Positions 4,688 through 64,000 of a DNA stretch of 64,000 bases are shown here, piece after piece. Below the pieces are notes generated by a model. It was given only the letters and a program-made list of their open reading frames with translations, ran no database searches and was not told the origin of the DNA. Source of the DNA: Fusobacterium necrophorum (GTDB lineage Bacteria > Fusobacteriota > Fusobacteriia > Fusobacteriales > Fusobacteriaceae); the NCBI RefSeq assembly GCF_004134945.1, contig NZ_SBAP01000001.1:83401-147400 (forward strand), given 5' to 3'. Position 1 is the stretch's first letter, and every line of letters starts with the position of its first letter. Made by a program: the position numbers and the translations under genes.

Positions 4688-4780
4688 ATTTATTCCCTCC
4701 TCAGTATTCGATTATTTCTTTAACTTATCTTTTAATTATATCAACTTTTGGTATAAAAAACAAGAAATTATGTATAGAGA

Positions 4781-6001: not shown

Positions 6002-6745
6002 CTATTGCGGATTAAAGTGAAATTCTTTTACAAAATACACTTTAATATTCTTTCCTGCATAAAAAATAGGTTTAAATCTCCATTTTTTAATTGCTTTCAT
6101 GACTTCATCGTCAAAACCTAATTTTTTATAAGATTTTATAATTTGAATATTTTCCACATTCCCTTTTAATCCTACTAAAAATTTCACTTTTACGGAAACT
6201 CTCTGATCATATCCTATGGCTTCCGCTTGTGAAGGATAATCCGGTTCCACCTCATGTAAGATTTGATAGTTAATTCCTTCTGAAGAAAGAGCGGTATAAG
6301 ATCCGTCTCCATTGGCTTGGAAATTGGATCCATAGAATGGATTGTCATTTCCTGAATTCTTTCCTGTTTCACTACTTTCCTGATTGTCGGAATTCTCTTC
6401 AACTGCTGAACTTTCTTCTTGCTTTACTTCTTTGGCATCTTTCGTTGCCATTTTACTGTCAAATGTTTTCTCCTTTACCTGTTCTTCTTTCTTCGGCTTT
6501 TCTTTTTTCGGTTGTTCTTTCGGCTTTTCATTTGTAGAATTTTCTTTCTTTTCTAAAACTTTATCGGCTACATTAGGACTCCCGGGATTATCGCTTGGAG
6601 GTGGATTTTCTACAACAAAGGAAACAGAAATTACTTGATTTAACGGAAGTTTTTCTTCTCCCTTGTGCATTTCATGATGATAAAATCCTAAAAAACACAA
6701 TATATGAATACAAAAAGAAAGAACTAGATATTTCTTCATAGCCAT
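6002..6745 (-). CDS. tonB: TonB energy transducer
   Basis: N-terminal TM anchor, Pro/Glu/Lys-rich spacer (EKPKEQPKKEKPKKEEQVKEK) and a C-terminal TonB_C domain. Immediately follows exbD. Confidence 0.8.
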   Translation of the reverse strand: MAMKKYLVLSFCIHILCFLGFYHHEMHKGEEKLPLNQVISVSFVVENPPPSDNPGSPNVADKVLEKKENSTNEKPKEQPKKEKPKKEEQVKEKTFDSKMATKDAKEVKQEESSAVEENSDNQESSETGKNSGNDNPFYGSNFQANGDGSYTALSSEGINYQILHEVEPDYPSQAEAIGYDQRVSVKVKFLVGLKGNVENIQIIKSYKKLGFDDEVMKAIKKWRFKPIFYAGKNIKVYFVKEFHFNPQ

Positions 6746-8152: not shown

Positions 8153-8307
8153 ATCCGTTTAATTTGCTTTATAAAATATCTTAATATAGTTTATCTCTTA
8201 TGTCAATATAAATATTTTTTTTAAGATAAGAAAAATAAAAATATAGGAATAATAAATAATCTATGCTATACTAATTCTACAAAAAATCAAAGAAGGAGTG
8301 ATTCCAA

Positions 8308-13881: not shown

Positions 13882-14249
13882 TTGCTCTGTACCTCTTTCT
13901 CTCGTCTATAGATAGACCGCTTCATGCATTCTACCCATTATATAATACATTTTTAATTTTTTATACAAAAGATTAAAATTCTTTTTACATCTTTTGTAAT
14001 TTCAAAAAATTGACGATACTCCATATGTTCATCAAAGTTAAAATAAGCTATATTTCTATATATGTATCACACTTTTTTTAATAAATAAAGAGATAAATAT
14101 CACATTTTTAAAAAATCATATTACCCGGCTCTCCTCTTGGATTTTCTGAAGTATCTCACTACAAGTTTCTGTCAAAAGTCACATTGATCATTTCCTTGAA
14201 AATTCCCAATATCAGCTTTCACATTTCATATTTGTAATAGTACAAAATA

Positions 14250-17249: not shown

Positions 17250-17275
17250 ACTCTTCTCCTATATGCGTATACTTC

Positions 17276-19273
17276 CTATATACTTCTAATCTCATTGATT
17301 CCAACCTGTTCTAATTTCTTGATGGCATTTGTTTTCTCTATATCATTTTTGAACGAAGTATCTCGCAATATCACTGTTGTTTTAAAATCTTTATCAATTT
17401 CCAATAATCTTCTATATTCTTCACAGATTGAATTGATTGTGTCTATCGTAATTTCTTTCTGTAAGTTTACTAATAAAGTTCCTCCACCTATCGAATAAAA
17501 ATCTTCATTTTCTTCTATTTCTATATTTAAATCTAATCCATATTTCAATAAAATTTCATACAATACATCCAATTCGCTTCTATCTGATTTTATATTATCC
17601 ACAGAATCAAATAAACTCTTTTCTAAATTTTCAGTTTCTGTATCCCATTCTTTTATATTTGATGAGTCTAGCTTAAACACTTTAAAACCTATATCTAATT
17701 TTTCTCTATTTTCTAAAGGTAAACTTTCATCTGCTTTTATTTTTGCTCCTGCTCTTCGGATTCTTTCCTTTCCGATTTCACATATATTTTTATGCCCTGC
17801 CTTGTAGGCTTCTGAATTTTTATCACAAGGTTCCGGAAGTTGTACCATAATAAATTTCCGATTTCCACCATCTTCTGCATTGAGTTGCATCACTGCATGA
17901 GCTGTTGAAGAACTACCAGAAAAGAAATCCAGACAAATAAACTGATCGTCATCTACTATCTTCAACATTTTTTTTAACATTTTAATAGGTTTTTTCCCAC
18001 TATTGAAAGCAATTCCACCTTCATGTCGGATATTACCAAAATCAGCACTATAATCATAAATAATTGACTATCGGACTATATTTTTTAGAAATTCCTCTAA
18101 CCAATTCTTCTTTTCTTTCCATAGGAATTCCGGAAAAAAATTGTCCTCTTATAGATGTTTCTTTTTTAGGACCTGTAAAGTATCTATACCCCAATCCATC
18201 TTCACCTATATTTTCTACTTTATACAATACATTTAGTCCGTCTATATCTTTTCTTTTTGAGATATATGTGTCAAAAAATTTCCCTGATGTATTGCCTATT
18301 AAAACACTCCCAGAAGCCCAAGTATCTTTTAATCCATTTATAAAATCATTTTCTTTTTCAACTATCCTATATTCATTTTCTTTAAAAATTTTAACTTTTT
18401 TATTACCTAAAACGATTTCTTCTCCCTTAGTCAATTCCTTTATTTCCCATTTAAATTTTTTCAAATCATATTCCTTATATGGTTTATTTGGAGTAAATCG
18501 ATTTTTATTTTTAGAATAAATACACACATATTCCATAACAGGTTGAAAATTATCTTTTTCATTTAATGATTTATTTATATATCTTACTTGAATATGAAAT
18601 GTTTCTAAATAATTTTCTTCCCCAAAAATCTCATTACATATTTTTCTAAGATTATAAATTTCTTTTTCATCTATGGAAATAAAAATAACACCATCTTCTG
18701 TTAATAAATTTCTTGCTAATTTCAATCTTGGATACATCATATTTAACCAGTTCGAATGATATCTGCCATCCGAGTCTATATTTGTTGTTAGTTTTATTCC
18801 TTCTTCATTGATTTGTCCTGTGATTCTTTTGTAATTTTCTACACTATCTTTAAAATTATCCTTATATACAAAATCTTTTCCTGTATTATATGGTGGATCT
18901 ATGTATATCATTTTTATTTTTCCATGATATGACTTTTGTAAGAGCTTTAATACTTCTAAATTATCTCCCTCTATATATAGATTGCTGGTGTGTGTGTGTG
19001 TGTGTGTGTGTGTGTAGTGTTCAGAACATTTTGTTCAGGTCTCAACGTTGCATTGCTCACTGTTTGAGCTATTTGTCTTGCTTTTGCTTTTCCATTCCAT
19101 GTAAAAGAGTATCTTTCTTTCTCGGTTTCTATGCTATCTCCTAGCAATTGTTTTAACACTTCCAAATCTATTTTTCCCTCTGTAAATATTTCGGGAAAAA
19201 TTTGTTTTAATTTCTCAATGTTATCTTGTGTTAAATCCATGCTTGTTCCACTTAGCTTTTCCAAATCTCTCAC
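17276..19273 (-). pseudogene. mod: Type III N6-adenine DNA methyltransferase Mod, split into three ORFs (N-terminal 100 aa; middle 285 aa with DPPY; C-terminal 234 aa with FxGxG-like motif). The first break sits at the dinucleotide tract, the second is a separate frameshift
   Basis: N-terminal piece (18971-19273) reads ERYSFTWNGKAKARQ...THTHTHTHTHT and stops right after the repeat. The frame of the 18054-18911 ORF is open upstream through the repeat (…TSNLYIEGDNLEVLKLLQKSYHGKIKMIYIDPPYNTGKDFVYKD), the canonical Mod motif IV region. The 17276-17980 ORF frame is open upstream to a TAG at 18068-18070 (…YDYSADFGNIRHEGGIAFNSGKKPIKMLKKMLKIVDDDQFICLDFFSGSSSTAHAV, motif I region). The frame change must occur within about 11 nt (18057-18067), where there is no repeat. 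Confidence 0.85.
18988..19015. repeat. (GT)14 / (CA)14 dinucleotide simple-sequence repeat inside the mod coding sequence, encoding (Thr-His)n
   Basis: Direct count in the sequence gives 14 GT units (28 nt). Because 28 is not a multiple of 3, unit gain or loss changes the mod reading frame. Confidence 0.95.
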
Positions 19274-19295
19274 TCCTTTTTATTATATAATATCT

Positions 19296-19405
19296 TCTTA
19301 TATTATCGACTGAATCAAATAAACTCTTTTCTAAATTTTGGATTTCCTCCATCTTCCGCATTCAATTGCATCACTGCATGGGCTGTGGTTGCAGAACCCT
19401 CTCGT
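19296..19405 (-). other. Partial, internally deleted relic of a second mod 3' end (homologous to mod segments around 17590-17640 and 17853-17916)
   Basis: tattatcgactgaatcaaataaactcttttctaaatttt nearly matches tatattatccacagaatcaaataaactcttttctaaatttt in mod. gatttcctccatcttccgcattcaattgcatcactgcatgggctgtgg matches gatttccaccatcttctgcattgagttgcatcactgcatgagctgttg in mod. The two blocks are contiguous here but about 215 bp apart in the mod gene. Confidence 0.6.
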
Positions 19406-19430
19406 GTCAAGTGAATGACACAAAATATTT

Positions 19431-20726
19431 TTATAAATCTATGATTGCTTCATTAAGCAAAAAATCCTCTACTCCAATGTATAAAATACCGTCATTATCA
19501 TGTTTAGGAATAATGCGCTTCCTTACAATCACAATCTTCTTAAATGCATCATTTATTTTCTTAAGTGATGCCGTTTCTTGCTCTCTTTTCTCTGTACTGT
19601 CTACATTCAAAGCCGATTGAATATAGTACCTTTGATGCCCTTTGTTTATAATAAAATCAACCTCAAGCTGAACCTTTTTTCTGTTCCCGTCTTTCTTGAA
19701 ATCGTGTTCAACCACACCAACATCTATATTGTATCCTCTACGAAGCAAGTCGTTATAGATGATGTTTTCCATAATATGTGTGTCTTCTACCTGCCTAAAA
19801 TTCAATCTTGCATTTCTAAGACCTATATCCGCAAAATAGTATTTTAATGGTGTTGAGAAATATCTTGAACCCTTAACGTCATATCTATTGGCATGATATA
19901 TAACATATGCCTCCTCAAAGAAACTAAGATATTTGGAGATTGTGTTGGAAGATATTTTTATTTGCTTCTCCGACAAAAATCTTCTTGAAAGTTTAGTCGG
20001 ATTGGTGAGCGATCCAATGGCGGAAGATGTGAAATCAAGCAGTAATTCAAGTACCTCCTTCTCATTTTGTATGTTATTCCTTTCAAGAATATCCTTTATA
20101 TATGTTTCTTGAAATAAGTCTTTCAAGTATTGATTCTTTTCCTCATCACTTTTTAAGCTATAGATATACGGCATACCTCCATACACCGTATAATGCTCAA
20201 AAGCCAACTCTTTGTTTTCGTACAAATCATAAACTTCTGCAAATGACAGAGGATTTAGATGTATCTCATCCCCACGATCTCGAAACTGTGTAAGCACATC
20301 GGATGAAAGCATTTTAGAATTACTGCCTGTTACATAAATGTCCAAATTGCTGTGTTTCATAAGTCCGAGCAAGACATCAACAAAGGTTACATTCTTTTCT
20401 TTACTGTCAATATAAGGATTACTTACAGCCACGGATAATTGAATTTCATCAATAAAAATGTAGTATTTTTGATTTTTGTTTTTAGTTTTTTCCTTGATGT
20501 ATTCGTTCAATCTGAATGGATTTCTATATTCAAGATTATCTATTTCATCAAGTGCAATCAATATGATTTGTTCTTCTTTGATGCCTTTGGATAATAGGTA
20601 CTCTTGGTACAAATGAAATAACAGATATGATTTCCCGCATCTTCTTATCCCTGTAATAATCTTTACCCTGCCGTTCTCTCTTTTATCTATAATTTTCTTC
20701 AGATAATAATCTCGTTTAATTATCAT
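19431..20726 (-). CDS. AAA+ ATPase with C-terminal DUF4143 (COG1373-type predicted ATPase)
   Basis: Walker A (GIRRCGKS) and Walker B (YYIFIDEIQ), plus a C-terminal DUF4143-like region. 431 aa. Confidence 0.8.
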   Translation of the reverse strand: MIIKRDYYLKKIIDKRENGRVKIITGIRRCGKSYLLFHLYQEYLLSKGIKEEQIILIALDEIDNLEYRNPFRLNEYIKEKTKNKNQKYYIFIDEIQLSVAVSNPYIDSKEKNVTFVDVLLGLMKHSNLDIYVTGSNSKMLSSDVLTQFRDRGDEIHLNPLSFAEVYDLYENKELAFEHYTVYGGMPYIYSLKSDEEKNQYLKDLFQETYIKDILERNNIQNEKEVLELLLDFTSSAIGSLTNPTKLSRRFLSEKQIKISSNTISKYLSFFEEAYVIYHANRYDVKGSRYFSTPLKYYFADIGLRNARLNFRQVEDTHIMENIIYNDLLRRGYNIDVGVVEHDFKKDGNRKKVQLEVDFIINKGHQRYYIQSALNVDSTEKREQETASLKKINDAFKKIVIVRKRIIPKHDNDGILYIGVEDFLLNEAIIDL

Positions 20727-20750
20727 ATAGCCACCTCACAAGAATAATTT

Positions 20751-20783
20751 CGGTGGATTTCCACCTTTTTATTTCGAGTTTAT
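20751..20783 (+). repeat. Hairpin plus T-run element, copy 1 (ggtggatttccacc tttttatttcgagt)
   Basis: Perfect ggtgga/tccacc inverted repeat followed by T5. A near-identical second copy lies about 78 bp away. Confidence 0.6.
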
Positions 20784-20828
20784 TTTATCATAAATCGGAA
20801 AACGAATCAACAATGGATAAAAAATTCA

Positions 20829-29711: not shown

Positions 29712-29807
29712 ATATCCTCCAAAATATTTTATTTTTATTATAACATTTATTTCGTATTGAATTCAAGCCTGTTTTTCGTTATAATAAGTAATATAAGGAG
29801 GCAAAGC

Positions 29808-31787
29808 ATGAAAGAAATTTTAATTCACACAAAAACGGATGACTATCCCATTTTGATCGGTTCTCATTTTTTACACAAGGTACATTCTTTTACCAAAAAA
29901 TATGATAAACTTCTGTTTTTGAGTAATGACACTCTTTTTTCTTATTATGGAGATTGGTATCAGCAGAACATTGCCTCTGAAAAAACGGAATATTTTTTAC
30001 TTCCGGACGGAGAAGAATATAAAACCTTAGACTCCGTTCAAAAAATTTACGATTTTATGATAGAAAAACATTTTTCCAGAAAGTCTTGTATTCTATGTTT
30101 TGGTGGTGGAGTTATCTGTGACATAGGTGGATTTGTTGCGGCAAGTTTTATGCGAGGAATTGATTTTATCCAACTTCCCACTTCCTTGCTTGCACAAGTG
30201 GATGCGAGTATCGGAGGAAAAGTAGCTGTCAATCATTCTACCGGAAAAAATTTAATCGGTTTCTTTTACAATCCGAAAGCGGTTCTGATTGATGTCAGTT
30301 TCCTTGATACTTTAGAGGAAACACAATTTCAGTCCGGAATGGCTGAAGTTATCAAACATTCCATTTTATCTTGTGATGAGAAATATTCCGATTTCTTATA
30401 TCGAAATTATGAAGCAATTCAGGAGAAAGAAGAAGATACTCTCATCTCCCTTGTGGAACAATCTTGCCGAATCAAACAATACTATGTAGAAAAAGATATG
30501 AAAGAACAAGGAATTCGTGCTTTCTTAAACTTCGGGCATACCTATGCTCATGCTTTAGAGAGTTTATTTCAATATAAAAATATTTCTCATGGAGAAGCGG
30601 TGGCAAAAGGCTGTCTTTTAGATTTATACGTTTCCTATCGTCAAGGTTTTTTGACAAAGGAATACTTTGAAAAAATAAAGCGTATCTTTCACCTGTATTC
30701 TATTGACGGCACTCCGATTCTATTTCCTTTCAAAGCTTTATGGGAAGCCATGAAACAGGATAAAAAAAATGCTTTTTCAAAAATTAATACCATTTATTTA
30801 AAAAAGCGGGAAGAAGAAAAAATTTTTACAGTACAGGAAATACACAAACAATTCACGGAAGACTATTTAACACAACAGCCTCATAATGAAGTGAAAGCAG
30901 TGATTGACATCGGAACCAATTCCTGTCGTCTTTATATTGCGGAACGGCAAGCGGATACTCATCAAATTATGAGACATTTACATCAGGAAGTACAAATTGT
31001 GCAGTTGGGAGAAGGAGTCAATCAGACAAAAAGATTGCAAAAACATGCTATGGATAGAACCATAAACTGTCTAAAAAATTATGCAAATACGATACGAGAC
31101 TATGCTTGCTCTTCTCTCTATTGTTTTGCTACTTCCGCTACAAGAGATGCTGAAAATCGAGATTTTTTTATTCAAAAAGTTTTTCAAGAAACAGGGATTC
31201 AAATTCATTGCATTTCCGGAGAAACAGAGGCGGAATATAATTTTCGCGGGGTAAGTCTCGCCGTCCCGGAACAAATTTTAATTATAGACATTGGAGGAGG
31301 TTCTACCGAGTTTACTCTGGGGAAAAATACTTCTATTTTCTTTTCCAAAAGTATCAACATAGGTGCTGTTCGTGCCACGGAACTCTTTTTTCCAAATCAA
31401 AACTATTCTTCAGAAGCTATTACTCAATGTAAAAAATGGATTTTGGAACAATTGGATTCCTTGTATCCTCTTAGAAAAGAAAACTTCAAAGTCATTGGAG
31501 TTGCGGGAACAGCTACCACACAAATATCCGTGGCAAAAGAAATGAAACAATATCGAAGAGAACTCGTTCATCTCTCGACACTTTCTATAGAACAACTGGA
31601 AAAAAATTTAATGTTATTTCTTTCCAAATCTTTGGAAGAAAGGCAAAAAATTATCGGTTTGGAAGCAAAAAGAGCGAATGTTATTATTGCCGGTACTATC
31701 ATTTTACAAACGATTCTTCTCTATTTACAACAAGATAGTATGACAATTTCAGAATATGATAATTTAATGGGAGCTATGATACTATGA
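29808..31787 (+). CDS. aroB: Fusion protein: 3-dehydroquinate synthase (AroB) N-terminal domain + Ppx/GppA-family phosphatase C-terminal domain
   Basis: AroB motifs GGGVICDIGGFVAASFMRGIDFIQLPTSLLAQVDASIGGKVAVNH and HGEAVAKG. From about residue 375 the Ppx/GppA ASKHA fold begins (AVIDIGTNSCRLYIAE...IIDIGGGSTEF). Start chosen at ATG 29808, which has an AAGGAGG RBS; the track ORF begins further upstream at 29757. Confidence 0.75.
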   Translation: MKEILIHTKTDDYPILIGSHFLHKVHSFTKKYDKLLFLSNDTLFSYYGDWYQQNIASEKTEYFLLPDGEEYKTLDSVQKIYDFMIEKHFSRKSCILCFGGGVICDIGGFVAASFMRGIDFIQLPTSLLAQVDASIGGKVAVNHSTGKNLIGFFYNPKAVLIDVSFLDTLEETQFQSGMAEVIKHSILSCDEKYSDFLYRNYEAIQEKEEDTLISLVEQSCRIKQYYVEKDMKEQGIRAFLNFGHTYAHALESLFQYKNISHGEAVAKGCLLDLYVSYRQGFLTKEYFEKIKRIFHLYSIDGTPILFPFKALWEAMKQDKKNAFSKINTIYLKKREEEKIFTVQEIHKQFTEDYLTQQPHNEVKAVIDIGTNSCRLYIAERQADTHQIMRHLHQEVQIVQLGEGVNQTKRLQKHAMDRTINCLKNYANTIRDYACSSLYCFATSATRDAENRDFFIQKVFQETGIQIHCISGETEAEYNFRGVSLAVPEQILIIDIGGGSTEFTLGKNTSIFFSKSINIGAVRATELFFPNQNYSSEAITQCKKWILEQLDSLYPLRKENFKVIGVAGTATTQISVAKEMKQYRRELVHLSTLSIEQLEKNLMLFLSKSLEERQKIIGLEAKRANVIIAGTIILQTILLYLQQDSMTISEYDNLMGAMIL

Positions 31788-47596: not shown

Positions 47597-48187
47597 CTAT
47601 TTTTTTATTTCCGTATTTGCTTCAAATGCATAAACATGAAGTTGTGTTCCTTCCGGAATTTCCACTTCCGCTATATTATTTTTATGAAATGCATACATGT
47701 TGATTTTCTTTACAGATGCGGGAATTTTTAGAGAAGTCAAAGAATTTTTATAGAAAGATGAAGTATCAATCAATTCTAATCCTTCCGGTAAATGAAGTTC
47801 TTCCAACTCATTCAACGCAAAAGCACTTGGTTCTATTGTTTTCACCTTATCTCCGAAAACTACATTTTTTAATTTATTTCGATAAAAAGCAAAGCCTTCA
47901 ATTCCCACCAAAGATGCCGGTAATTTTACTTCTGTCAATTTACATACTCCAAAGGCATCATAACCGATGGTTTCCACTGTATCAGGAATGACTACGGAAG
48001 TCAATCCTCTTCTGTAAAAAGCATTGTCTCCAATTCTCTTAATCGCCAATCCTTCAGGAGTTGTTGCAGGAATAATCATATCCGTAAATCCTTGCGTTTT
48101 TACTTTATCTTTTCCCTTTGCCGTCATTCCTTTTAATTCATCGCCTTTAAAAATAAAATCATCATTTTCCCATACATTTTGACACAT
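47597..48187 (-). CDS. Small BspA-type leucine-rich-repeat protein (no signal peptide)
   Basis: Tandem 22-24 residue repeats of the BspA/LRR_5 kind (AFYRRGLTSVVIPDTVETIGYDAFGVCKLTEVKLPASLVGIEGFAFYRNKLKNVVF...). Confidence 0.6.
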   Translation of the reverse strand: MCQNVWENDDFIFKGDELKGMTAKGKDKVKTQGFTDMIIPATTPEGLAIKRIGDNAFYRRGLTSVVIPDTVETIGYDAFGVCKLTEVKLPASLVGIEGFAFYRNKLKNVVFGDKVKTIEPSAFALNELEELHLPEGLELIDTSSFYKNSLTSLKIPASVKKINMYAFHKNNIAEVEIPEGTQLHVYAFEANTEIKK

Positions 48188-51589: not shown

Positions 51590-52828
51590 TTATCCGATAC
51601 CAACCATCGCTTTGGCGATATTCAAGAATTTGGTGATAATAATCGCATTACTAATATTGCTGATAAATCCTCCAATAACAGGTACTACGAAAAATGCTAA
51701 TTTAGAATATCGATATTTTCGACAAACTGTCTGCATTGTTGTCATAGAAACCGGTACTGCTCCTAGTCCAAATCCGGAATGTCCTACCGCCATGACTGCT
51801 GCATCGTAATCTCTTCCTAGTAAATTGAATGTTAATAAGTAACAGAATACTACGATAAAAATCACTTGAGAAATTAACAATACAAATAGAGGTCCTCCTA
51901 AATCTGATAATTGCCATAGCTTCATGGTAATAATCGACATAGAAACAAACAATCCTAAAGAGAATTCTCCAACCGTATCAATTGCTTCATACAAAACATC
52001 ATGATTTCCTTTTCTTCCATCGTAAAATAATCGGATTAAAATTCCTCCCAACATACAGCTTACATGAATAGGAAAGCTAACCCCATATTTTTTTAGTACT
52101 AAAGTGACAATTTGTCCGATTCCTAAGGCAATGCACATTAAAAACATGGCATTCACCACACTCTTTTTATCCACTGCCATTGCAGAAGAAGTTTCCGCCC
52201 CTTCTTGCAGATTATCAATATCATCTTTTCCATCCAAAGCAGGATCTTCCAAATGATGCCGTTTAATAATAAAATTTCCTAAAGGTCCTCCTAAAATACA
52301 ACCGGAAATCAATCCGAAGGTTGCTGATGCAATTGCCACTTCCATTGCTGCCCCTGCTCCTGCTTCCACTGCAATCGGAGCGAAAGCTGCCGCATTCCCA
52401 TGACCTCCCGTCATGGGAATACTTCCGGTCATCATGGAAATCAACGGATTGACATTCATCAATTTTCCGATAAATAATGCCAAAGCATTTTGTCCTGCCG
52501 CCAATATTGCAGCAAGAATTGCGAAAATCACGACAAGCTTTCCTCCTTTTTTCAAAAGAGACAAGCTTGCTGCCGCTCCACTTGCGGCAAAGAAAATACA
52601 ATAAAACAATGAATTGACGGCTTTAAATTCAAAGCTCAATTCACAGATATTTGCATAGTATAGTCCCATAGAAGCTACGGCAAATACTGTTCCTCCCACA
52701 ACAGAAGCGGGTAAACAATATTTTTTCAGAACAGGAAATTGTTTTCTCAAAAATTCTCCAAAATAAATAGCCAATACTGCCAACGACAATGTTTCAAACA
52801 TACCTAATTCTAAAACGATTCTATTCAT
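51590..52828 (-). CDS. gltS: Sodium/glutamate symporter GltS
   Basis: 412 aa GltS family, with an N-terminus like that of the second copy at 62150-63331. Confidence 0.85.
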
Positions 52829-57609: not shown

Positions 57610-58026
57610 TTATTGAATTTCTACCAACACTGCATCTGTATCAACGTTATCTCCTTTTTTCACTTTAATTGCTGTTACTTTCCCTGCAAATTCAGAAACA
57701 ATTTCATTTTCCATTTTCATAGCTTCTAAAATAACAATGGTTTGTCCCACAGTGACAGTATCTCCTTCTTTCACTTTTAAATCCAAGATAACTCCCGGCA
57801 TAGGACTAACAACTGCATTTGCTGTTCCTGAGCTTGTCGTTGCTGCCGGAGCTGCAACAGGAGCTGCTTTTACTTCTTCCACAGCCGGTGCCGGCTTTTG
57901 AACCGGTATTGATGTTCTTTCTCCTCTTTCCATTGGTCTTCTAGATAAAGATCCCGCTGATCTTCGGTCTGCTCTTTCTACTTCAACTTCAAATTTTTCT
58001 CCATTTACTGTTACAACATACTTCAT
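57610..58026 (-). CDS. gcdC: Glutaconyl-CoA decarboxylase biotin carrier subunit
   Basis: Ala/Pro-rich linker then biotinyl domain with EAMKMENEI, the biotinylation motif. Confidence 0.8.
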   Translation of the reverse strand: MKYVVTVNGEKFEVEVERADRRSAGSLSRRPMERGERTSIPVQKPAPAVEEVKAAPVAAPAATTSSGTANAVVSPMPGVILDLKVKEGDTVTVGQTIVILEAMKMENEIVSEFAGKVTAIKVKKGDNVDTDAVLVEIQ

Positions 58027-58068: not shown

Positions 58069-58374
58069 TTACATTTTTTGAATGTTGGTTATTACGAATC
58101 TGTCTACCGGTTCTCTTCTCTCTTCACTAATTGCGGCGGTAATCACTGCAATTTTTAAAGCTTCATTCTTATCTTTCTTCGGTGCTTCTGTCACTTTTGC
58201 AGTCATTTTTACTTCCGACTCTTTCACCAAAAGAGTCTTTTCCAAAGCAGCAATCACTTTTGATACGACAGTAACAAAAATCGCCAAAAAGACCAATGAC
58301 AAAAAAACAATAGATATTCCTAGAAGTGATGTAAGCAAGCTTTCTAAAAATCCAATGTACTCTGTTGTAATCAT
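58069..58374 (-). CDS. gcdD: Glutaconyl-CoA decarboxylase delta subunit (OadG-like membrane anchor)
   Basis: 101 aa, single TM (LGISIVFLSLVFLAIFV). OadG family size and position. Confidence 0.65.
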   Translation of the reverse strand: MITTEYIGFLESLLTSLLGISIVFLSLVFLAIFVTVVSKVIAALEKTLLVKESEVKMTAKVTEAPKKDKNEALKIAVITAAISEERREPVDRFVITNIQKM

Positions 58375-58388
58375 TCTCCTTCCTCCTT

Positions 58389-60398
58389 TTATTTTTTTCT
58401 TAGCATTTTTTTCAATGTATCCTCAAAATTTTCCTCCTCAAAGAAATCATTCAATTGAAAAAGTAAATTTTGATCTTCCGCATCCCCTTTTGGAGCAAAG
58501 CATACAAAGTATTCTATTTTTTTCTCTCTTACTATTAAAGGGGTCTCTACATGTACAATCGAAAATCCTGTATGATATACATTTTCTTTCGGTTCCGTAT
58601 AAAATAAAGCACTGTTCTCATTCAAAAGAAACATAAGTCCGTCTTCTTCCAAACGGTTTAGCATATCTTCCATATAAGCTTTTTTGATGTATTTATGCTT
58701 CCATAATATTTCCGTGGCAGCCTTCACCGCTTCTTTCCAATCAAATACATCAAGTTCTATAATTTGATATTTTTGAATGACCAAATTCTCCTTCATTTCT
58801 TGAGCTTTCTCGTCTACAACAATAGTTGGAAAACTTTGTAACAAATCTTCTCTTAGTTTGAAGGCATTGCATTTTTGTATCTCTACATTTCTTTCAATGA
58901 CATTCATCAAAGCATCCAAAGAAATATGTTTATCTTGAGGAGGAAGTTCGAATTCCTCCAGATGATTTCGATCTGATTCCGTTAAAATAGGGCTTACCCT
59001 ACAAAAAGGAATTTTCAAATTCATTTGAGATAAATCGGAGGTCGTGATAATCAAATCCACTTTTTCCTGAAAGTCATCCAATTGCTTCATGGAAATCACA
59101 TGGGCAATCTCCACTAAGAATTCTTCCTCCAATCTGGCTAATAAAAAGTTAATCAAATTTCTTTTGTAAGAAGATACCACCAAAATTCTCTTTGCCTGTC
59201 GAATTCGATTTCGTAAAGCCACCTGAAAAATAGGAACCAAAAAGCCGATTTCATTATCAGAAACTTCCAAGCCTAATAAAGTTTCAAAGCTTTGGAAAGC
59301 TTTTTTCAAATAAAAGAAAGTGTCACCATAGATGGATTTGACTTCTTTTAAAACGGTATTTTTTAATTCAATCTGTTTTGAGCTGCGATAAATTAAAGGT
59401 TTAATATAGTATAAAATATCGTCCAACAATTTTTTATTTTTGACAAGCTGCACTTTCTTGAGAGATTCGAACTCTTTGATTAAGCGATACACTCCCAATT
59501 CTATTTCAATCCAATTCCGATGTCTTGCAAAAATTTCTTTTTCATCACAGGAAATTCGAAGTAAGTAATCAGTTAAGAAGTAAATGTTTAATTCCGACAG
59601 TTCCGGAAATACTTTTCGCAAGGTTTTAAATTCTTTTGTTTCTTTCAATACTTTTTTATTTAGCACTTCCAAGTCTTCAGAATTCAGCTTCCGAAGTTTT
59701 AAGACAGAAATCAACAAAATCAATAAGTTTAAGGTTTCGTCCGTATAAGGTAAATCGATACCTTTAATTTTTTGGTAACTATCTTCCAAAACGGAACAAT
59801 ACATTTTAGTTAAAATTTCATAGACTATTTTTTCAAAATAATTGCTCCGCTTAAAAGAAATTGCCTTTCTTCCCTCATCAAAAGTCACATAATTATATAA
59901 GAAGATGGATAGGTAATAAATCAAGTCGTTATTTTTATATTGAACCCTATATTTTTTATTGGAATATTGTTCTAAATGAATTCCCACTTTTTTTAATTTT
60001 TCCGTCAAAATTTTAATATCTGCACGCAAAGTGGATTTGCTCATTTGCAAACTATCTGCAATCTCTTCGATTTGAAATTCGTCTTCCTGTAAAATAGTTT
60101 CAATAATCAGGAGATCCATTCTTTCTTTTTGCTCATACACATAGTTTTGCACATTCAATCCTTTAATCAGGGAAGCAATATCATTTTCATCCAAAAGACA
60201 GTATATTTTTCTTTTTTTAATAAAAATCTTCTCTTGCCCCAAATTTTCATTTAATTCTTGAATCTTATAACGAATATTTCTTTCCGTTTGATTGAAGATG
60301 TCGGCAACCCTTTTTAAATCATCTTCTTTCTTTAATTCTTTTAAAATTTCAAAATGCTTTGTATTTAGTGCCAAAGAAATTCCCCCAAAATAAAACAA
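58389..60398 (-). CDS. BglG/LicR/MtlR-family transcriptional regulator (HTH domains, PRD domains, EIIB-like, C-terminal PTS EIIA-2-like domain)
   Basis: 669 aa. Tandem N-terminal HTH segments, a central PRD-like helical region, an EIIB-like RILVVSSY segment, and a C-terminus resembling the EIIA-2 active-site region (YHTGFSIVHVETP). Lies 14 nt upstream of gcdD. Confidence 0.55.
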   Translation of the reverse strand: MFYFGGISLALNTKHFEILKELKKEDDLKRVADIFNQTERNIRYKIQELNENLGQEKIFIKKRKIYCLLDENDIASLIKGLNVQNYVYEQKERMDLLIIETILQEDEFQIEEIADSLQMSKSTLRADIKILTEKLKKVGIHLEQYSNKKYRVQYKNNDLIYYLSIFLYNYVTFDEGRKAISFKRSNYFEKIVYEILTKMYCSVLEDSYQKIKGIDLPYTDETLNLLILLISVLKLRKLNSEDLEVLNKKVLKETKEFKTLRKVFPELSELNIYFLTDYLLRISCDEKEIFARHRNWIEIELGVYRLIKEFESLKKVQLVKNKKLLDDILYYIKPLIYRSSKQIELKNTVLKEVKSIYGDTFFYLKKAFQSFETLLGLEVSDNEIGFLVPIFQVALRNRIRQAKRILVVSSYKRNLINFLLARLEEEFLVEIAHVISMKQLDDFQEKVDLIITTSDLSQMNLKIPFCRVSPILTESDRNHLEEFELPPQDKHISLDALMNVIERNVEIQKCNAFKLREDLLQSFPTIVVDEKAQEMKENLVIQKYQIIELDVFDWKEAVKAATEILWKHKYIKKAYMEDMLNRLEEDGLMFLLNENSALFYTEPKENVYHTGFSIVHVETPLIVREKKIEYFVCFAPKGDAEDQNLLFQLNDFFEEENFEDTLKKMLRKK

Positions 60399-60545
60399 TC
60401 TTTTTCATTATAGAACTTTTTCTTTTATATTTTTCTTTCATTATACAACGGATTTCAGAAAAATTATAGTTTTAATTTTTTCATTTTTTTGTGAAATTTT
60501 TAAGAGAAAAATATTTTTTTCACTTTTTCAAAAACATATCTTTTT

Positions 60546-62054
60546 TTATTTTTTCCAAATAAGGCAGTATCGTAATTTTTTTCTTTCCTCTTCAAAACAG
60601 GACTGTTTTTTCCTTTTTAAAATAACGATTTCCACTTCTCCCTTTTCTTCTTCCATAGCAATTTCTATTTTTTTCAAAGAAGAAAAAGCTTCAAAAGTTC
60701 CCAATGTATTATAAAAACTGATGTCTTGTCCTCTATAAAACAGCCTCCAAGATATATCCCCCAAGATATATCCATTCTCCTGGTGATAATCCAACACAAC
60801 GTCCGAAACAAGAGTGGCTAAGATCTTATGCCCTGAAAATCGGAAAGAAAATCTCTCTTCTCCATGCAACAAGCTCGCTTCCTTTACAATGGAATTTTGA
60901 TATTCTTTGTAGATTTCTTCAGAAGAGGCGGAACAACCATAGCCTAAAGAATATTTTTCATAGCCCGTTGCAGCTTGTATTACCATTGCTTTTAAAAATA
61001 AAGGACTTGCTTCCGGATTCCAATATAAAATATTTCCGACAATTCTGCTTATTCTGGCTGTTGCAAAACTGGTTCCGAAAGAACTGACAATCTCTCCCTC
61101 CGGGGAAAAAGAAAACACGCCCTCAATTTTATTTCTTCCTTCTACACTTCTAAGAACATCTCCTCCATACATGGCAATATCGGGTTTTTGTAAAATTTCA
61201 TGCCCCTTTCCACGCAGACTGAAACCGGACACTTTCTTCTCTTGATTACAGGAAGCTACTACCAAAGCTCTCTCCGTATCGGAACCTTGTAACATCATGC
61301 CCGCCTCTTCGGAACTTTGGATAAAATTTCCATTCCCGCAAGATTTACAAATCAAAACATCATAGTTTTCCTGCAAATAATCAAGCAAAAGTCCAAAATC
61401 GGAAATACGATTCTTTTCTATCGGAAAACGAATACTAATGGCAAGATTCCAAATCTTAATCCAGGAATGCTCCGATACCACTTTATAAATTCTCTCATAA
61501 AGTTCATCTTCCTCCAACTGATACACAGAAAAATCCGGTACCACAGCGGCATCAAAAATTCTAAGTTCCTTTCCTCCTGCCCAAGATTGTCCGGATAATA
61601 AATCTCCATATAGGAGAACCCCCGCTACAAACGTTCCATGACTCGGATATTTTTCTTCTTTGCAATAAGAGCTTCCGTCCTCGTACAAAAAATGTTCAAA
61701 CTCTGTCAAACGAGCTATTCCATTATCTAAAATTCCAATCACGGGATAGCAAGTTTCTTTTCCCGAGACTGCGAGATTTCCCCTCTCTCTATCTATTTGT
61801 TTGCTTTGAAAATTCAGAAAATATCGATGCATCCCTTGTATAAAATCAACTTCCGGATTACCGGCTATTTCTTTCTGTAATTCTTCCGAAACATCTTCTA
61901 TTTTATAAATAGAATATCCCGGAAAAAATTCCTTCCTTTGGTAGCAAACTCCTTTTTCTTCTAAAAAATGTTCCCATGTTTTTCGTTGTATTTCTCTTTC
62001 TTCCAGCTCTCGCTTTTTCAATTTTACTTTATAGTGCTTCTTAAATTTTGTCAT
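60546..62054 (-). CDS. Intracellular subtilisin-like serine peptidase (S8 family) with N- and C-terminal extensions of unknown function
   Basis: Catalytic triad contexts present in canonical order: Asp (VIGILDNGIA), His (SHGTFVAGVL), Ser (FGTSFATARISRIVGN). Oxyanion-hole region ICKSCGNGN. No signal peptide (N-terminus MTKFKKHYKVKLKKRELEEREIQRK). Confidence 0.7.
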   Translation of the reverse strand: MTKFKKHYKVKLKKRELEEREIQRKTWEHFLEEKGVCYQRKEFFPGYSIYKIEDVSEELQKEIAGNPEVDFIQGMHRYFLNFQSKQIDRERGNLAVSGKETCYPVIGILDNGIARLTEFEHFLYEDGSSYCKEEKYPSHGTFVAGVLLYGDLLSGQSWAGGKELRIFDAAVVPDFSVYQLEEDELYERIYKVVSEHSWIKIWNLAISIRFPIEKNRISDFGLLLDYLQENYDVLICKSCGNGNFIQSSEEAGMMLQGSDTERALVVASCNQEKKVSGFSLRGKGHEILQKPDIAMYGGDVLRSVEGRNKIEGVFSFSPEGEIVSSFGTSFATARISRIVGNILYWNPEASPLFLKAMVIQAATGYEKYSLGYGCSASSEEIYKEYQNSIVKEASLLHGEERFSFRFSGHKILATLVSDVVLDYHQENGYILGDISWRLFYRGQDISFYNTLGTFEAFSSLKKIEIAMEEEKGEVEIVILKRKKQSCFEEERKKLRYCLIWKK

Positions 62055-62077
62055 ACTTCCTCATTTCTTAAAAAAGA

Positions 62078-62125
62078 GGTGCTTTGCCTGAAAACAATAA
62101 GCAAAACACCCCCCATATTTTTAGT
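62078..62125 (-). terminator. Intrinsic terminator after the second gltS (stem ggtgttttgc/gcaaagcacc with U-run on the minus transcript)
   Basis: 10-bp stem with one mismatch, G/C-rich relative to the surroundings. Followed on the minus strand by TCTTTTTT. Separates gltS2 from the S8 peptidase gene. Confidence 0.55.
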
Positions 62126-62149: not shown

Positions 62150-63331
62150 TTATCCGACAAAGATGCTTGTGAAGGTTTGAATGATAACGGCATTAAAGAA
62201 GTCGATAAATAAAGATCCTACCAAAGGAATTACGAAAAAGGCTTTCGTTGAGAATCCATTGACAGATGTAAATGCCTCCATATTTGCAATTGCATTTGGA
62301 GTTGCTCCCATTCCGAATCCACAATGTCCTGTTGCCATCACTGCCGCATCATAATCTCTTCCCATAATGTTGAAAGTCACATAGTAAGCGAACAGAGCCA
62401 TGATTACAGTTTGAACCAATAAGATAGTAATCAAAGGAAGTGCCAAATCAGCTAATTGCCATAATTTCATTGACATTAACGCCATAGATAAGAATAAAGA
62501 CAAACATACGTTTCCAACAATCGAAATTTCATTAATTGGAGTTTTATTGGAAGTTCCGTCCACCACATTTCTCATAATTGCTGCAATTAACATCGGAATC
62601 AAATATGCCGGTAGAGACAATCCCGCCTCTTTGACAATAGGAGTAATACAAGCTCCCAATCCCATAGCAATACCAATCATACATACTGCTTTAAAAATTG
62701 ATTTTTCCGTTACTTTTTCTTCTGTTGCCGCTTCTACTTTTTCTTTTGCTTCATCATGACATACTAATTTATATTTTTCCATCAATCGTTTTGCAATCGG
62801 TCCCCCGATAACACATCCTGAAACCAATCCATAAGTGGCGGAAGCAATTGCCACCACGGTAGCCCCCACAACTCCTCTTTCTTCCAAATAAGGTCCGAAA
62901 GCTCCGGAAGTTCCGTGTCCTCCTGTCAACGGAATGGATCCTGCCGCCAATCCGATTCCGGGATTTAATCCGAATGCTTTTGCCAAAGCTACTCCAACTC
63001 CATCTTGAATGATAACTAAAACAATGGCTGCAAATAGGAACAGTGCTACTCCAACTCCTCCTTTTTTCAATAAGGAGAAACTTGCCAAAAATCCGACAGA
63101 AGTAAAAAATACTACCATGAAGAAGTTCTTTAAGTTGGAATCGAATTCAAAATCAAAAGCTCCGGTAGAATGTCCTATCAACAATAAAACAGAGAATAGG
63201 AATCCTCCAATAACTGGTGCAGGAATAAAGTATTTTTGAAACACTCCAACTTTACTTTTTATCCAATTCCCCAATAGTAATAAAATAATTGCTAGACCTA
63301 AAGTTTGATACATATCCAATGTAAATGCCAT
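62150..63331 (-). CDS. gltS: Sodium/glutamate symporter GltS (second copy)
   Basis: 393 aa, same family and topology as 51590-52828 (shared motif ...KYFIPAPVIGGFLFSV / ...[16 protein letters not shown]). Confidence 0.8.
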   Translation of the reverse strand: MAFTLDMYQTLGLAIILLLLGNWIKSKVGVFQKYFIPAPVIGGFLFSVLLLIGHSTGAFDFEFDSNLKNFFMVVFFTSVGFLASFSLLKKGGVGVALFLFAAIVLVIIQDGVGVALAKAFGLNPGIGLAAGSIPLTGGHGTSGAFGPYLEERGVVGATVVAIASATYGLVSGCVIGGPIAKRLMEKYKLVCHDEAKEKVEAATEEKVTEKSIFKAVCMIGIAMGLGACITPIVKEAGLSLPAYLIPMLIAAIMRNVVDGTSNKTPINEISIVGNVCLSLFLSMALMSMKLWQLADLALPLITILLVQTVIMALFAYYVTFNIMGRDYDAAVMATGHCGFGMGATPNAIANMEAFTSVNGFSTKAFFVIPLVGSLFIDFFNAVIIQTFTSIFVG

Positions 63332-63358: not shown

Positions 63359-64000
63359 TTATTTTATTTCGTTTTTGCAAGCTCCGGTTTCTAGGTATTC
63401 TTTAATATTGTCAAAACTTGTTTCAATCATATTCAAAGCAGCTTCATCTGTGTAAGATCCCACATGTGGGGTAATAATTACTTTCGGATACATCGCTACC
63501 AGTTTTTCAAAAGCGGCTGTCGGCAATTCTTTTTCGGAAAAATCTTTGAAGAATAAAGAAACTTCATTATCCAAAGTATCAATTCCCGCTCCATATACTT
63601 TTCCGCTTTCCAATGCTTCTACCAAAGCATCTGTGTCTACCAATTCTCCTCTTCCTGTATTAATAAGGATAACATTATCTTTCATCTTCGCAAAAGCTTC
63701 TTTGGTAATCACTTTTCCATTTTCCTTAATATAAGGAGCATGTAAAGTAATAATATCGGATTGTGCCAGTAACTCATCCATAGATACTTGTGTTACAATA
63801 TCTTCCACTCCCGTTTTAGGGAATAAATCATAACCTATTACCTTTGCTCCCAATCCTTTAAACAGTTTAGCAGCTGTCATTCCGATTCTTCCTAATCCGA
63901 CAACTCCAACAGTACAGTTTCTTACTTCTCTTGAGAACATTTGCTTATCGACGATAAAATTTTTATCTTTTGTTTTATTTCCCGTATAAGTTACATTTCT
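63359..64000 (-). CDS. D-isomer-specific 2-hydroxyacid dehydrogenase (candidate (R)-2-hydroxyglutarate dehydrogenase HgdH), 5' end beyond the window
   Basis: NAD-binding GxGxxG ([11 protein letters not shown]) and the catalytic R/E/H region of the D-2-hydroxyacid DH family. Hand translation shows the frame stays open from 63940 to the window edge, so the true start is outside the window. Confidence 0.75.

Follow-up and report, generated by a model that had tools for sequence, protein, structure and literature searches.

In the 64,000-nucleotide stretch of Fusobacterium necrophorum DNA considered here (the window; contig NZ_SBAP01000001.1, positions 83,401 to 147,400), the genes for glutamate fermentation via 2-hydroxyglutarate are headed by the gene of a regulator that has lost all the residues by which its relatives accept phosphoryl groups. 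This PRD/EIIA protein, called REG in the following (58389-60374, minus strand), has the architecture of MtlR and LicR, activators of sugar phosphotransferase system (PTS) operons, and is probably, as far as gene order and promoter sequences indicate, the regulator of the gcd/hgd operon. Its gene is preceded by that of a short S8 subtilase of the IetS type. IetAS systems are composed of an AAA ATPase (IetA) and an S8 protease (IetS), and act both as plasmid-stability toxin/antitoxin and as anti-phage systems. The best explanation of the whole locus, to which a probability of about 0.55 is given, is that of a phospho-dead, operon-specific DNA-binding REG accompanied by a domesticated, partner-less IetS-type protease. 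The route concerned is the main energy-yielding, Na+-pumping pathway of fusobacteria, including F. necrophorum.

An MtlR/LicR-type regulator and its former phosphorylation sites

REG and its domains are located as follows.

58389-60374, minus strand: REG, 661-aa regulator of MtlR/LicR architecture without phospho-acceptor residues (Pfam, AF2, Foldseek, alignments)
REG aa 1-60: first winged helix-turn-helix domain (wHTH1)
REG aa 83-142: HTH_11/Mga domain
REG ~aa 179-274: PRD1
REG ~aa 288-388: PRD2
REG ~aa 395-474: EIIB-like domain
REG ~aa 538-659: EIIA-like domain

The open reading frame (ORF) as listed spans 58389-60398, which gave the 669 aa of a first-pass annotation of the same DNA. The start is most likely the TTG at 60374, judging from the sequence, since this codon stands behind a GGGGGA ribosome-binding site and homologues begin with MALNTKHF; a length of 661 aa thus replaces the earlier one. 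Pfam assigns PRD (2.7e-13), PTS_EIIA_2 (6.2e-11), Mga (6.5e-6), HTH_11 (1.4e-5) and HTH_DeoR (6.4e-5) to the protein, the three helix-turn-helix (HTH) models all exceeding their cut-offs and the PRD match being that of PRD2. The earlier calls of a Mga-type HTH, a PRD and an EIIA_2 domain were therefore right. PRD1, a helical bundle, and the EIIB-like domain, a beta-alpha unit, are seen at the fold level only. The AF2 model (mean pLDDT 81) displays two winged-helix units, and pLDDT falls below 50 at residues 275-284, within the PRD1-PRD2 linker. In Foldseek, the model is matched best by AtxA (4r6i, E 2e-13, 524 columns), together with MgaSpn and the Mga-like protein 3sqn of E. faecalis, and its C-terminal 120 residues by EIIA-Mtl/Ntr domains. 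REG is under strong constraint, with a ratio of nonsynonymous to synonymous substitution rates (dN/dS) of 0.04-0.06.

The same series of domains (HTH_11, Mga-type HTH, PRD1, PRD2, EIIB-Gat-like, EIIA-Mtl-like) is found in the MtlR/LicR/ManR activators of Firmicutes, for which B. subtilis MtlR is the reference. Like REG, these proteins belong to the DNA-binding and not the RNA-binding type and count about 650-700 aa, and the nearest relatives of REG regulate sugar-PTS operons. The antiterminators BglG, SacY and LicT share the PRD fold, a PRD of REG being alignable to LicT PRD1, but REG carries HTH domains where these proteins have their CAT RNA-binding domain, which Pfam does not detect in REG, and it has no RAT/terminator target. 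Antitermination of the BglG type was ruled out, as there is neither a CAT domain nor any hairpin or terminator in the gap of 14 nt that separates REG from gcdD. Both sequence and model place REG among DNA-binding regulators rather than RNA antiterminators, and the name "BglG family transcription antiterminator" given by NCBI to its homologues is misleading because of the missing CAT domain.

For residues 1 to ~475 of REG, the best structural matches are Mga, AtxA, MgaSpn, MafR and AcpA/B. Regulators of the Mga/AtxA/MafR type display an HTH-HTH-PRD-PRD-EIIB arrangement and end without EIIA (PMC8560693), whereas REG keeps an EIIA-like domain, is linked by its gene context to a single catabolic operon and occurs in a Gram-negative host, Fusobacterium. 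As in REG, the PRD histidines of MafR and AcpA are degenerate or shifted, and the targets of these virulence regulators are likewise non-sugar genes. Against the NCBIfam model NF053736 (AcpB/EbpR/MafR), REG scores 29.1 bits for a cut-off of 130.

The phosphorylatable residues of MtlR are H342 and H399 in PRD2, C419 in EIIB and H599 in EIIA (PMC8560693). Unlike MtlR, REG has a Tyr, an Ile, a Ser and a Tyr at these positions, namely Y323, I382, S401 and Y592. In pairwise alignments, H100 of LicT stands opposite a Tyr and H159 opposite a gap or an Ile, and the "PH" motif of EIIA is opposite "FY". The four regions of the family alignment are ILYYIKPLIYR, FLVPIFEVAL, VVSSYK and ALFYTEPK in the Fusobacterium clade, where canonical relatives have His, His, Cys and His. 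The gcd-linked clade includes 21 sequences (the window protein, P0001-P0017 and P0198-P0200), in which the first PRD2 His is replaced by Tyr, the second by Ile, the EIIB Cys by Ser or Thr and the EIIA His by Tyr, so that none of the 21 members keeps any of the four canonical sites. For comparison, 1.84 billion cluster representatives were searched exhaustively without a profile, and the 138 full-length sequences among the best matches were aligned with the clade. Among the 135 nearest representatives outside the clade, the first PRD2 His is retained in 130 (96%) and the second in 98 (73%), while the EIIB Cys and the EIIA His are each retained in 133 (99%).

Since all acceptor residues are replaced across the clade, canonical PTS phosphorylation of REG appears unlikely. 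Fusobacteria possess EI, HPr and HPrK (PMC2405797), and the loss of sites in REG is thus not explained by a phylum devoid of PTS. The genomic surroundings of relatives that retain the sites point in the same direction. The gene of P0018 (locus L010), a site-retaining protein 31% identical to REG, is divergent to genes for EIIA_2, PTS_IIB, PTS_EIIC and FBP-aldolase, and the site-retaining Cetobacterium locus L004 contains ORFs of matching sizes at the same places as this sugar operon. By contrast with MtlR and LicR, REG is the first gene of an amino-acid fermentation operon, and no PTS gene is found in the REG-gcd loci of any lineage examined. The proposal of the first-pass annotation, that glutamate catabolism is controlled through PTS phosphorylation, is accordingly not upheld: the PRD and EIIA domains are indeed there at the fold level, but their catalytic residues are gone, and the closest site-retaining relatives adjoin an EIIA-EIIB-EIIC-aldolase sugar operon. 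The simplest history suggested by these sequences would be that of a sugar-PTS regulator recruited to the glutamate operon, with its phosphorylation sites lost afterwards.

Only two histidines are conserved in the clade, one belonging to the first HTH (H7) and the other to the linker between PRD1 and PRD2 (H285); C59, C276 and C458 are further conserved residues. C276 and H285, in or beside the linker, are conserved in 17 of 18 gcd-clade sequences, the exception being P0017, which represents a deeper REG-gcd branch. Tyrosines stand at former phospho-His positions throughout the clade: Y270 (~59565-59567), Y323 (~59406-59408) and Y592 (~58599-58601), equivalent to the second His of PRD1, the first His of PRD2 and the EIIA His, respectively. 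Outside the clade, P0250 is the sole representative among the 138 in which the PRD2 His, the EIIB Cys and the EIIA His are all lost (G-N-S-Y), and it may be an independent second phospho-dead regulator.

Linkage of REG to the gcd/hgd operon and its upstream box

The positions used in this section are the following, all on the minus strand.

58069-58374: gcdD, first enzyme gene of the operon, 14 nt past the REG stop codon (Pfam OAD_gamma)
60440-60447: extended -10 promoter element TGTATAAT for REG-gcd-gct-hgd, unique in the window
60480-60496: conserved 17-bp box TTTCACAAAAAAATGAA, candidate REG operator, about -63 to -47, single exact match in the window
60515-60527: distal A-rich box AAAAGTGAAAAAA, related to the 17-bp box and 19 bp further upstream, matching AAAARTGAAAAAA

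The part of the window from 43.5 to 64 kb is a single co-oriented gene string on the minus strand, in the order hgdH, gltS2, S8 protease, REG and, after 14 nt, gcdDCB-gctAB-gcdA-gltS1-hgdCAB. The gap between REG and gcdD, read from the sequence, has exactly the 14 nt given for it earlier and contains a ribosome-binding site only, AAGGAGGA. REG directly precedes gcdD in the window and in loci L001, L002, L003, L007, L008, L009, L013 and L017, with REG identities of 34-97% and gaps of 14-25 nt. The highest identity, 97%, is that to F. necrophorum ATCC 25286 (L001). The full order, including the protease, recurs in L001 and L002 and in the more distant L007, L008 and L013/L014, where REG identity ranges from 59 to 97%; as it recurs across divergent Fusobacterium lineages, this order is not due to chance.

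In another Fusobacterium-like genome (L015/L016; GctA 74% identical), the genes gdh, hgdH and gltS are followed by a slot and then by gcdDCB-gctAB-gcdA-gltS-hgdCAB. This slot (L015 6210-7796, and also in L016) is occupied by genes for a 272-aa flavodoxin/4Fe-4S (Fer4) protein and a 251-aa regulator of the IclR family. Compared with the window, a two-gene module has thus been swapped between hgdH-gltS and gcdD. The exchange of one regulator for another at a single position is what would be expected of an operon's own, dedicated regulator. Conserved synteny, the promoter-proximal box described below and the IclR regulator in the same slot all strengthen the earlier suggestion that REG is positioned to control the gcd/hgd operon.

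The upstream region of REG can hardly be aligned between distant lineages except for one block, the 17-bp box of consensus TTTCAnAAAAAArTGAA. The box is present exactly once in the 64-kb window, once each upstream of REG in L001, L002, L007, L008, L009 and L017 and with one mismatch in L013/L014, so that all nine REG-upstream regions (9/9) display it exactly or one mismatch off. It is absent from the ten other loci fetched, including the IclR-type L015/L016. No exact copy is found upstream of hgdH or gdh, or elsewhere in the window or in any of the loci fetched, that would indicate a wider regulon. The distance from the box to the -10 element is 33-34 nt in 8 of the 9 regions, although the spacer sequence differs among lineages, and the -10 element is TG-extended in 7 of those 8, L009 having TAG-TATTAT. 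No good -35 element exists at the REG promoter. A box at about -63 to -47 combined with the lack of a good -35 is the layout of an activator-dependent promoter, which would make activation the direction of regulation.

The distal box AAAAGTGAAAAAA is conserved in L001, L002, L007 and L013, and AAAARTGAAAAAA has two exact matches in the 64-kb window, both within the protease-REG intergenic region. A reading of the A-rich boxes as CodY boxes or CRP-like sites was considered on inspection and abandoned for want of support. A search for repeats between the protease and REG genes detected low-complexity AT-rich pairs only, uninformative by themselves, and a generic promoter and terminator scan gave sites no commoner than in shuffled sequence.

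The IetS-type protease and the remainder of the locus

The protease, its domains and the features before it in the gene string are the following.

60546-62054, minus strand: short IetS-type S8 subtilase, 502 aa (Pfam Peptidase_S8 7e-33)
protease ~aa 1-95: propeptide-like domain
protease ~aa 100-375: catalytic domain
protease ~aa 388-501: beta C-terminal domain
62067-62113, minus strand: intrinsic terminator with a 15-bp stem, a 9-nt loop and a U-run, its end 12 nt short of the protease ATG (folding energy -21.1 kcal/mol, z -2.96)
62150-63331, minus strand: gltS2, second Na+/glutamate symporter (Pfam Glt_symporter E 2e-119)
63359-64000, minus strand: hgdH, (R)-2-hydroxyglutarate dehydrogenase, 3' part, the gene running past the window end (Pfam 2-Hacid_dh and 2-Hacid_dh_C at 63359-63940)

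The catalytic residues D110, H139 and S329 and the oxyanion residue N241 of the protease are invariant in 22 sequences. A P-M-x-R-Y-F-L motif is conserved as well, and autoprocessing may take place behind it. Pfam finds the S8 domain only, in keeping with the initial Peptidase_S8 call, and the Inhibitor_I9 model gives no match to the N-terminal domain; a PDB sequence search gave no matches either. The N-terminus, MTKFKKHYKVKLKKRELEEREIQRK, contains no hydrophobic stretch by inspection, a signal-peptide predictor not having been applied, which agrees with the description of a subtilase without signal peptide. In the AF2 model (pLDDT 89.6, pTM 0.91), the N-terminal part forms a beta-alpha-beta-beta-alpha-beta unit (strands 7-12, 38-44, 47-53 and 69-74, helices 17-33 and 57-65) and residues 388-501 an all-beta domain. 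The two flanking domains announced by the first-pass annotation thus exist, but they are not of unknown nature nor of about 100 and 170 aa: the model gives a propeptide-like fold of ~95 aa and an all-beta domain of ~115 aa.

The best Foldseek matches are subtilase pro-forms, namely 3afg (ProN-Tk-SP, E 3e-20), 3whi (unprocessed pro-subtilisin E), EpiP and PCSK9, and for this reason the N-terminal domain is regarded as propeptide-like and the modelled protein looks like a zymogen. Tk-SP, pro-subtilisin E, EpiP and PCSK9 have a three-part fold of propeptide, S8 domain and beta domain, to which that of the protease, with its propeptide-like N-terminal part, corresponds; sequence identity to the protease is 13-17% only. 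These pro-subtilases are secreted or compartmental proteins with signal peptides.

At the sequence level, the closest family is IetS. The PADLOC model PDLC02201 matches the protease at 2e-82, over profile positions 156-552 of 781 only, whereas the score against the NCBIfam IteS equivalog is 117.5 bits for a cut-off of 900. Homologues fall into two tiers: short forms of 460-503 aa, 41-96% identical, which are all in this locus among those looked up, and full-length IetS of ~780 aa, 27-35% identical. IetS shares with the protease a propeptide-like domain, the D/H/N/S core and the end of the C-terminal domain, and likewise has no signal-peptide-like N-terminal extension. Unlike IetS, the short forms lack the first ~155 residues and have a C-terminal domain compacted by deletions, hence 502 instead of ~780 aa, and the protease is without IetA, off mobile elements and fixed in a metabolic locus. 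In the control locus L012, a 782-aa IetS has IetA (E 7e-139) immediately upstream, amid genes for ParB, a recombinase and a relaxase within a mobile element. No IetA AAA+ ATPase lies beside the protease in the window or in the lineages examined, its neighbours being gltS2 and REG, so that the absence of a partner ATPase noticed at first is borne out. A complete IetAS system was ruled out on account of the missing ATPase and a score far under the NCBIfam cut-off.

The dN/dS of the protease is 0.15 for the comparison with L001 and 0.21-0.27 when the window is compared with lineages further away, above that of the enzymes (0.00-0.06) and of REG yet clearly indicative of purifying selection; the protease evolves 3-4 times faster than REG. 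A decaying pseudogene or a recent insertion was ruled out by the intact frame, the invariant triad, these dN/dS values of 0.15-0.27 and synteny maintained down to 41% identity. A short IetS-like protease of 492 aa, 35% identical, is encoded at 1627-3105 of L011 after a tRNA-synthetase-like gene, with no IetA on this 3.4-kb contig, which shows that short relatives of IetS without a partner are not confined to the glutamate locus.

The first-pass annotation had credited the protease gene with its own terminator upstream; the hairpin is present, but the terminator is that of gltS2. A generic terminator scan missed it owing to its 9-nt loop, and folding confirmed the hairpin. As the hairpin ends 12 nt before the start codon, there is no room for a promoter between the two. 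An equivalent hairpin followed by a T-run stands directly before the protease start, 12-35 nt away, in L001 (~8262-8305), L007 (~6290-6330), L008 (~4709-4730) and L013/L014 (L013 ~3316-3342), and in L013 the stretch from the upstream stop codon to the hairpin is likewise too short for a promoter. No terminator is found after the protease gene, before REG. A gene held in this way between a terminator and the next promoter is an unusual, conserved placement. With a hairpin before it, no visible promoter and no terminator after it, the protease gene is apparently expressed only when transcription of the hgdH(-gltS) unit passes the terminator, probably to a small extent, and this transcription would continue into REG.

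The protease accompanies REG only in a sub-branch in which REG identity is at least 59%. Upstream of REG, L009 has a tRNA gene and L017 has gdh, without protease, which indicates that REG does not generally depend on the protease and that the link between REG and gcd is older and wider than that between protease and REG. Within the F. necrophorum-related sub-branch, the sequences suggest vertical inheritance of the protease as part of the locus. The regulator-subtilase pair was found to co-occur with gcd/hgd genes in L001, L002, L007, L008 and L013/L014, but not in L009 and L017.

The other genes of the string were correctly named at the outset, on the minus strand, and Pfam confirms them all. 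From gcdD onward, OAD_gamma (gcdD), biotinyl carrier (gcdC), OAD_beta (gcdB), two CoA_trans (gctA, gctB) and Carboxyl_trans (gcdA) are followed by Glt_symporter, BcrAD_BadFG (hgdC) and two HGD-D genes (hgdA, hgdB), and then by a small gene of BspA-type leucine-rich repeats (LRR) and biotin genes. The 2-hydroxyglutarate pathway set, consisting of HgdH, GctAB, HgdCAB and GcdABCD, is complete at the locus. The D-2-hydroxyacid dehydrogenase, given as a likely HgdH, has 1xdw, the (R)-2-hydroxyglutarate dehydrogenase of A. fermentans, as its top PDB match (E 1.9e-76, 259 bits), the next match, a D-LDH, reaching 172 bits; since 1xdw is the best solved relative by this difference, the assignment is sound. 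GltS2 passes the NCBIfam gltS equivalog cut-off at 388 bits, is ~38% identical to GltS1 (51590-52828, minus strand) and is absent from lineage L007. GctA is 99% identical to a F. necrophorum protein.

Some further observations concern the operon and the rest of the window. The small decarboxylase subunit genes gcdD (58069-58374) and gcdC (57610-58026) evolve much faster than the other operon genes: the codon alignment with F. necrophorum ATCC 25286 gives identities of 89% and 94% and dN/dS values of 0.48 and 0.23 for them, while the remaining operon enzymes are 99-100% identical with dN/dS of 0.00-0.02. Directly after hgdB, 47597-48187 (minus strand) encodes a 196-aa protein made nearly entirely of BspA-type leucine-rich repeats; at its position, L017 has a 196-aa ORF without recorded Pfam match (18168-18758). 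Elsewhere, a 676-aa ORF (29757-31787, plus strand) unusually fuses a 3-dehydroquinate-synthase-like N-terminal half to a Ppx/GppA phosphatase C-terminal half. The stretch ~14000-20800 has a low GC content (29-30%, vs ~35% elsewhere in the window) and carries genes for a 999-aa helicase/endonuclease resembling type III restriction enzymes (14250-17249) and an AAA_14/DUF4143 ATPase (19431-20726). The stretch could thus represent an island of defence genes or a mobile one.

Proposed mechanism, competing explanations and significance

In the mechanism proposed, REG would descend from MtlR/LicR sugar-PTS regulators and would, within a single branch of the Fusobacteriaceae, have taken over the first place in the operon, losing on the way all residues that accept a phosphoryl group from HPr, EIIA or EIIB. 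It would bind the TTTCAn-A6-rTGAA box and the upstream AAAAGTGAAAAAA box, centred ~55 bp upstream of the transcription start of a promoter with an extended -10 and no good -35, and would activate from there its own gene together with gcdDCB-gctAB-gcdA-gltS-hgdCAB. Its PRD, EIIB-like and EIIA-like domains would serve as an oligomerisation, ligand or partner scaffold instead of phosphorylation targets. The protease would be a streamlined cytoplasmic relative of IetS, having lost the ~155-aa N-terminal domain and the IetA ATPase, and expressed at a low level through terminator read-through from the hgdH-gltS unit.

Several points weigh against this explanation. The intergenic region is very AT-rich and A-rich repeats are partly expected there, a relaxed 13-mer having 15 matches vs 7 expected, and a factor other than REG could be the one that recognises the box. 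Read-through is proposed because no promoter could be recognised, and L009 and L017, the more distant REG-gcd lineages, have no protease. Regulators can be governed by the mere binding of PTS proteins, without any phosphorylation, and H285, non-canonical but conserved in the protease-linked sub-branch, could in principle be phosphorylated.

The last two points would also suit the first reading of REG, that of a working PTS-responsive regulator in which phosphorylation or the binding of PTS proteins couples sugar to glutamate fermentation. REG keeps the complete fold set of PTS-controlled activators, its close relatives are genuine PTS-operon regulators, EI, HPr and HPrK are present in fusobacteria (PMC2405797), H285 is available as one conserved non-canonical His and a control by binding would not require the lost residues. 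This reading is nonetheless quite improbable given the replacement of the four canonical acceptors in 21/21 clade members when they are kept in 73-99% of the 135 relatives, the lack of a PTS gene at the locus in any lineage and the non-conservation of H285 in the deeper branch P0017. Still harder to accept is that REG acts as a nucleoid-associated, sequence-non-specific global regulator, reading AT-rich curved DNA like MafR or MgaSpn. A discrete 17-bp sequence is conserved at a fixed distance from the -10 while its surroundings diverge, REG is tied to one operon in all lineages and it retains the EIIA-like domain that Mga/AtxA-type regulators lack. These facts count for more than the fold common to AtxA, MgaSpn and 3sqn, the weak NCBIfam AcpB/EbpR/MafR match over REG aa 7-475 and the extreme AT-richness of the REG promoter region, even though MafR also has no shared PRD histidines and binds AT-rich DNA (PMC8560693).

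As regards the protease, it could be a stand-alone orphan IetS, defence- or toxin-like, merely resident at this place and unrelated to glutamate fermentation. IetS is the family that it matches best, its evolution is more rapid than that of the neighbouring genes, which is common in defence genes, the terminator before it and the lack of its own promoter would hold a potentially toxic protease low, and the short IetS-like P0048 was found in an unrelated context. This possibility is doubtful, because both IetA and the IetS N-terminal domain are missing, the score is 117 bits against a cut-off of 900, and the gene is not in a mobile or defence island but keeps the same position among core catabolic genes in divergent lineages, a constancy not usually seen in defence genes. 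A proteolytic switch, in which REG or a partner is cut by the protease, the disordered PRD1-PRD2 linker being one conceivable site, and the operon is tuned in this way, is unlikely. Throughout the sub-branch the two genes stand side by side, even where identity has fallen to 41% for the protease and 59% for REG, the protease is catalytically intact and under purifying selection, C276 and H285 flank or lie in a linker of pLDDT below 50 at 275-284 and are conserved in 17/18 sequences (not P0017), and transcription would run on from one gene to the other in the absence of a terminator. Adjacency is nevertheless the only link. REG-gcd lineages devoid of the protease keep the box and the promoter layout, and the protease evolves 3-4 times faster than REG. 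A very speculative and improbable extension would have the ex-IetS protease and the ex-PTS regulator, both deprived of their original partners or signalling residues, form a new proteolysis switch in which the dead EIIA and PRD domains respond to an intermediate of the fermentation, for example to glutamate, 2-oxoglutarate or (R)-2-hydroxyglutarate. If true, this switch would set the level of Na+-pumping glutamate fermentation in pathogens of the F. necrophorum group.

The preferred explanation remains the phospho-dead, operon-specific REG with its domesticated protease. No paper was found on a gcd/hgd regulator or on transcriptional control of these genes in Fusobacterium, nor on this regulator clade or on orphan short IetS proteases, and the literature on IetS/IetA and on F. 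necrophorum transcriptomics provided nothing relevant. For the glutamate-fermentation operon, definite candidates for the regulator and its operator can now be named along with a promoter, and another Fusobacterium-like lineage uses a different regulator, of the IclR family, at the same position. In the defence field, the locus is an example of the long persistence of an IetS-type protease that has no IetA and stays at one chromosomal position among metabolic genes; automated defence finders would call it a partial IetAS system. In the PTS field, REG provides the case of a full-length MtlR/LicR-type regulator in which normally conserved acceptors are all lost together on the move to a non-sugar operon, and it is informative about the functions open to PRD, EIIB-like and EIIA-like modules when phosphorylation is no longer possible.

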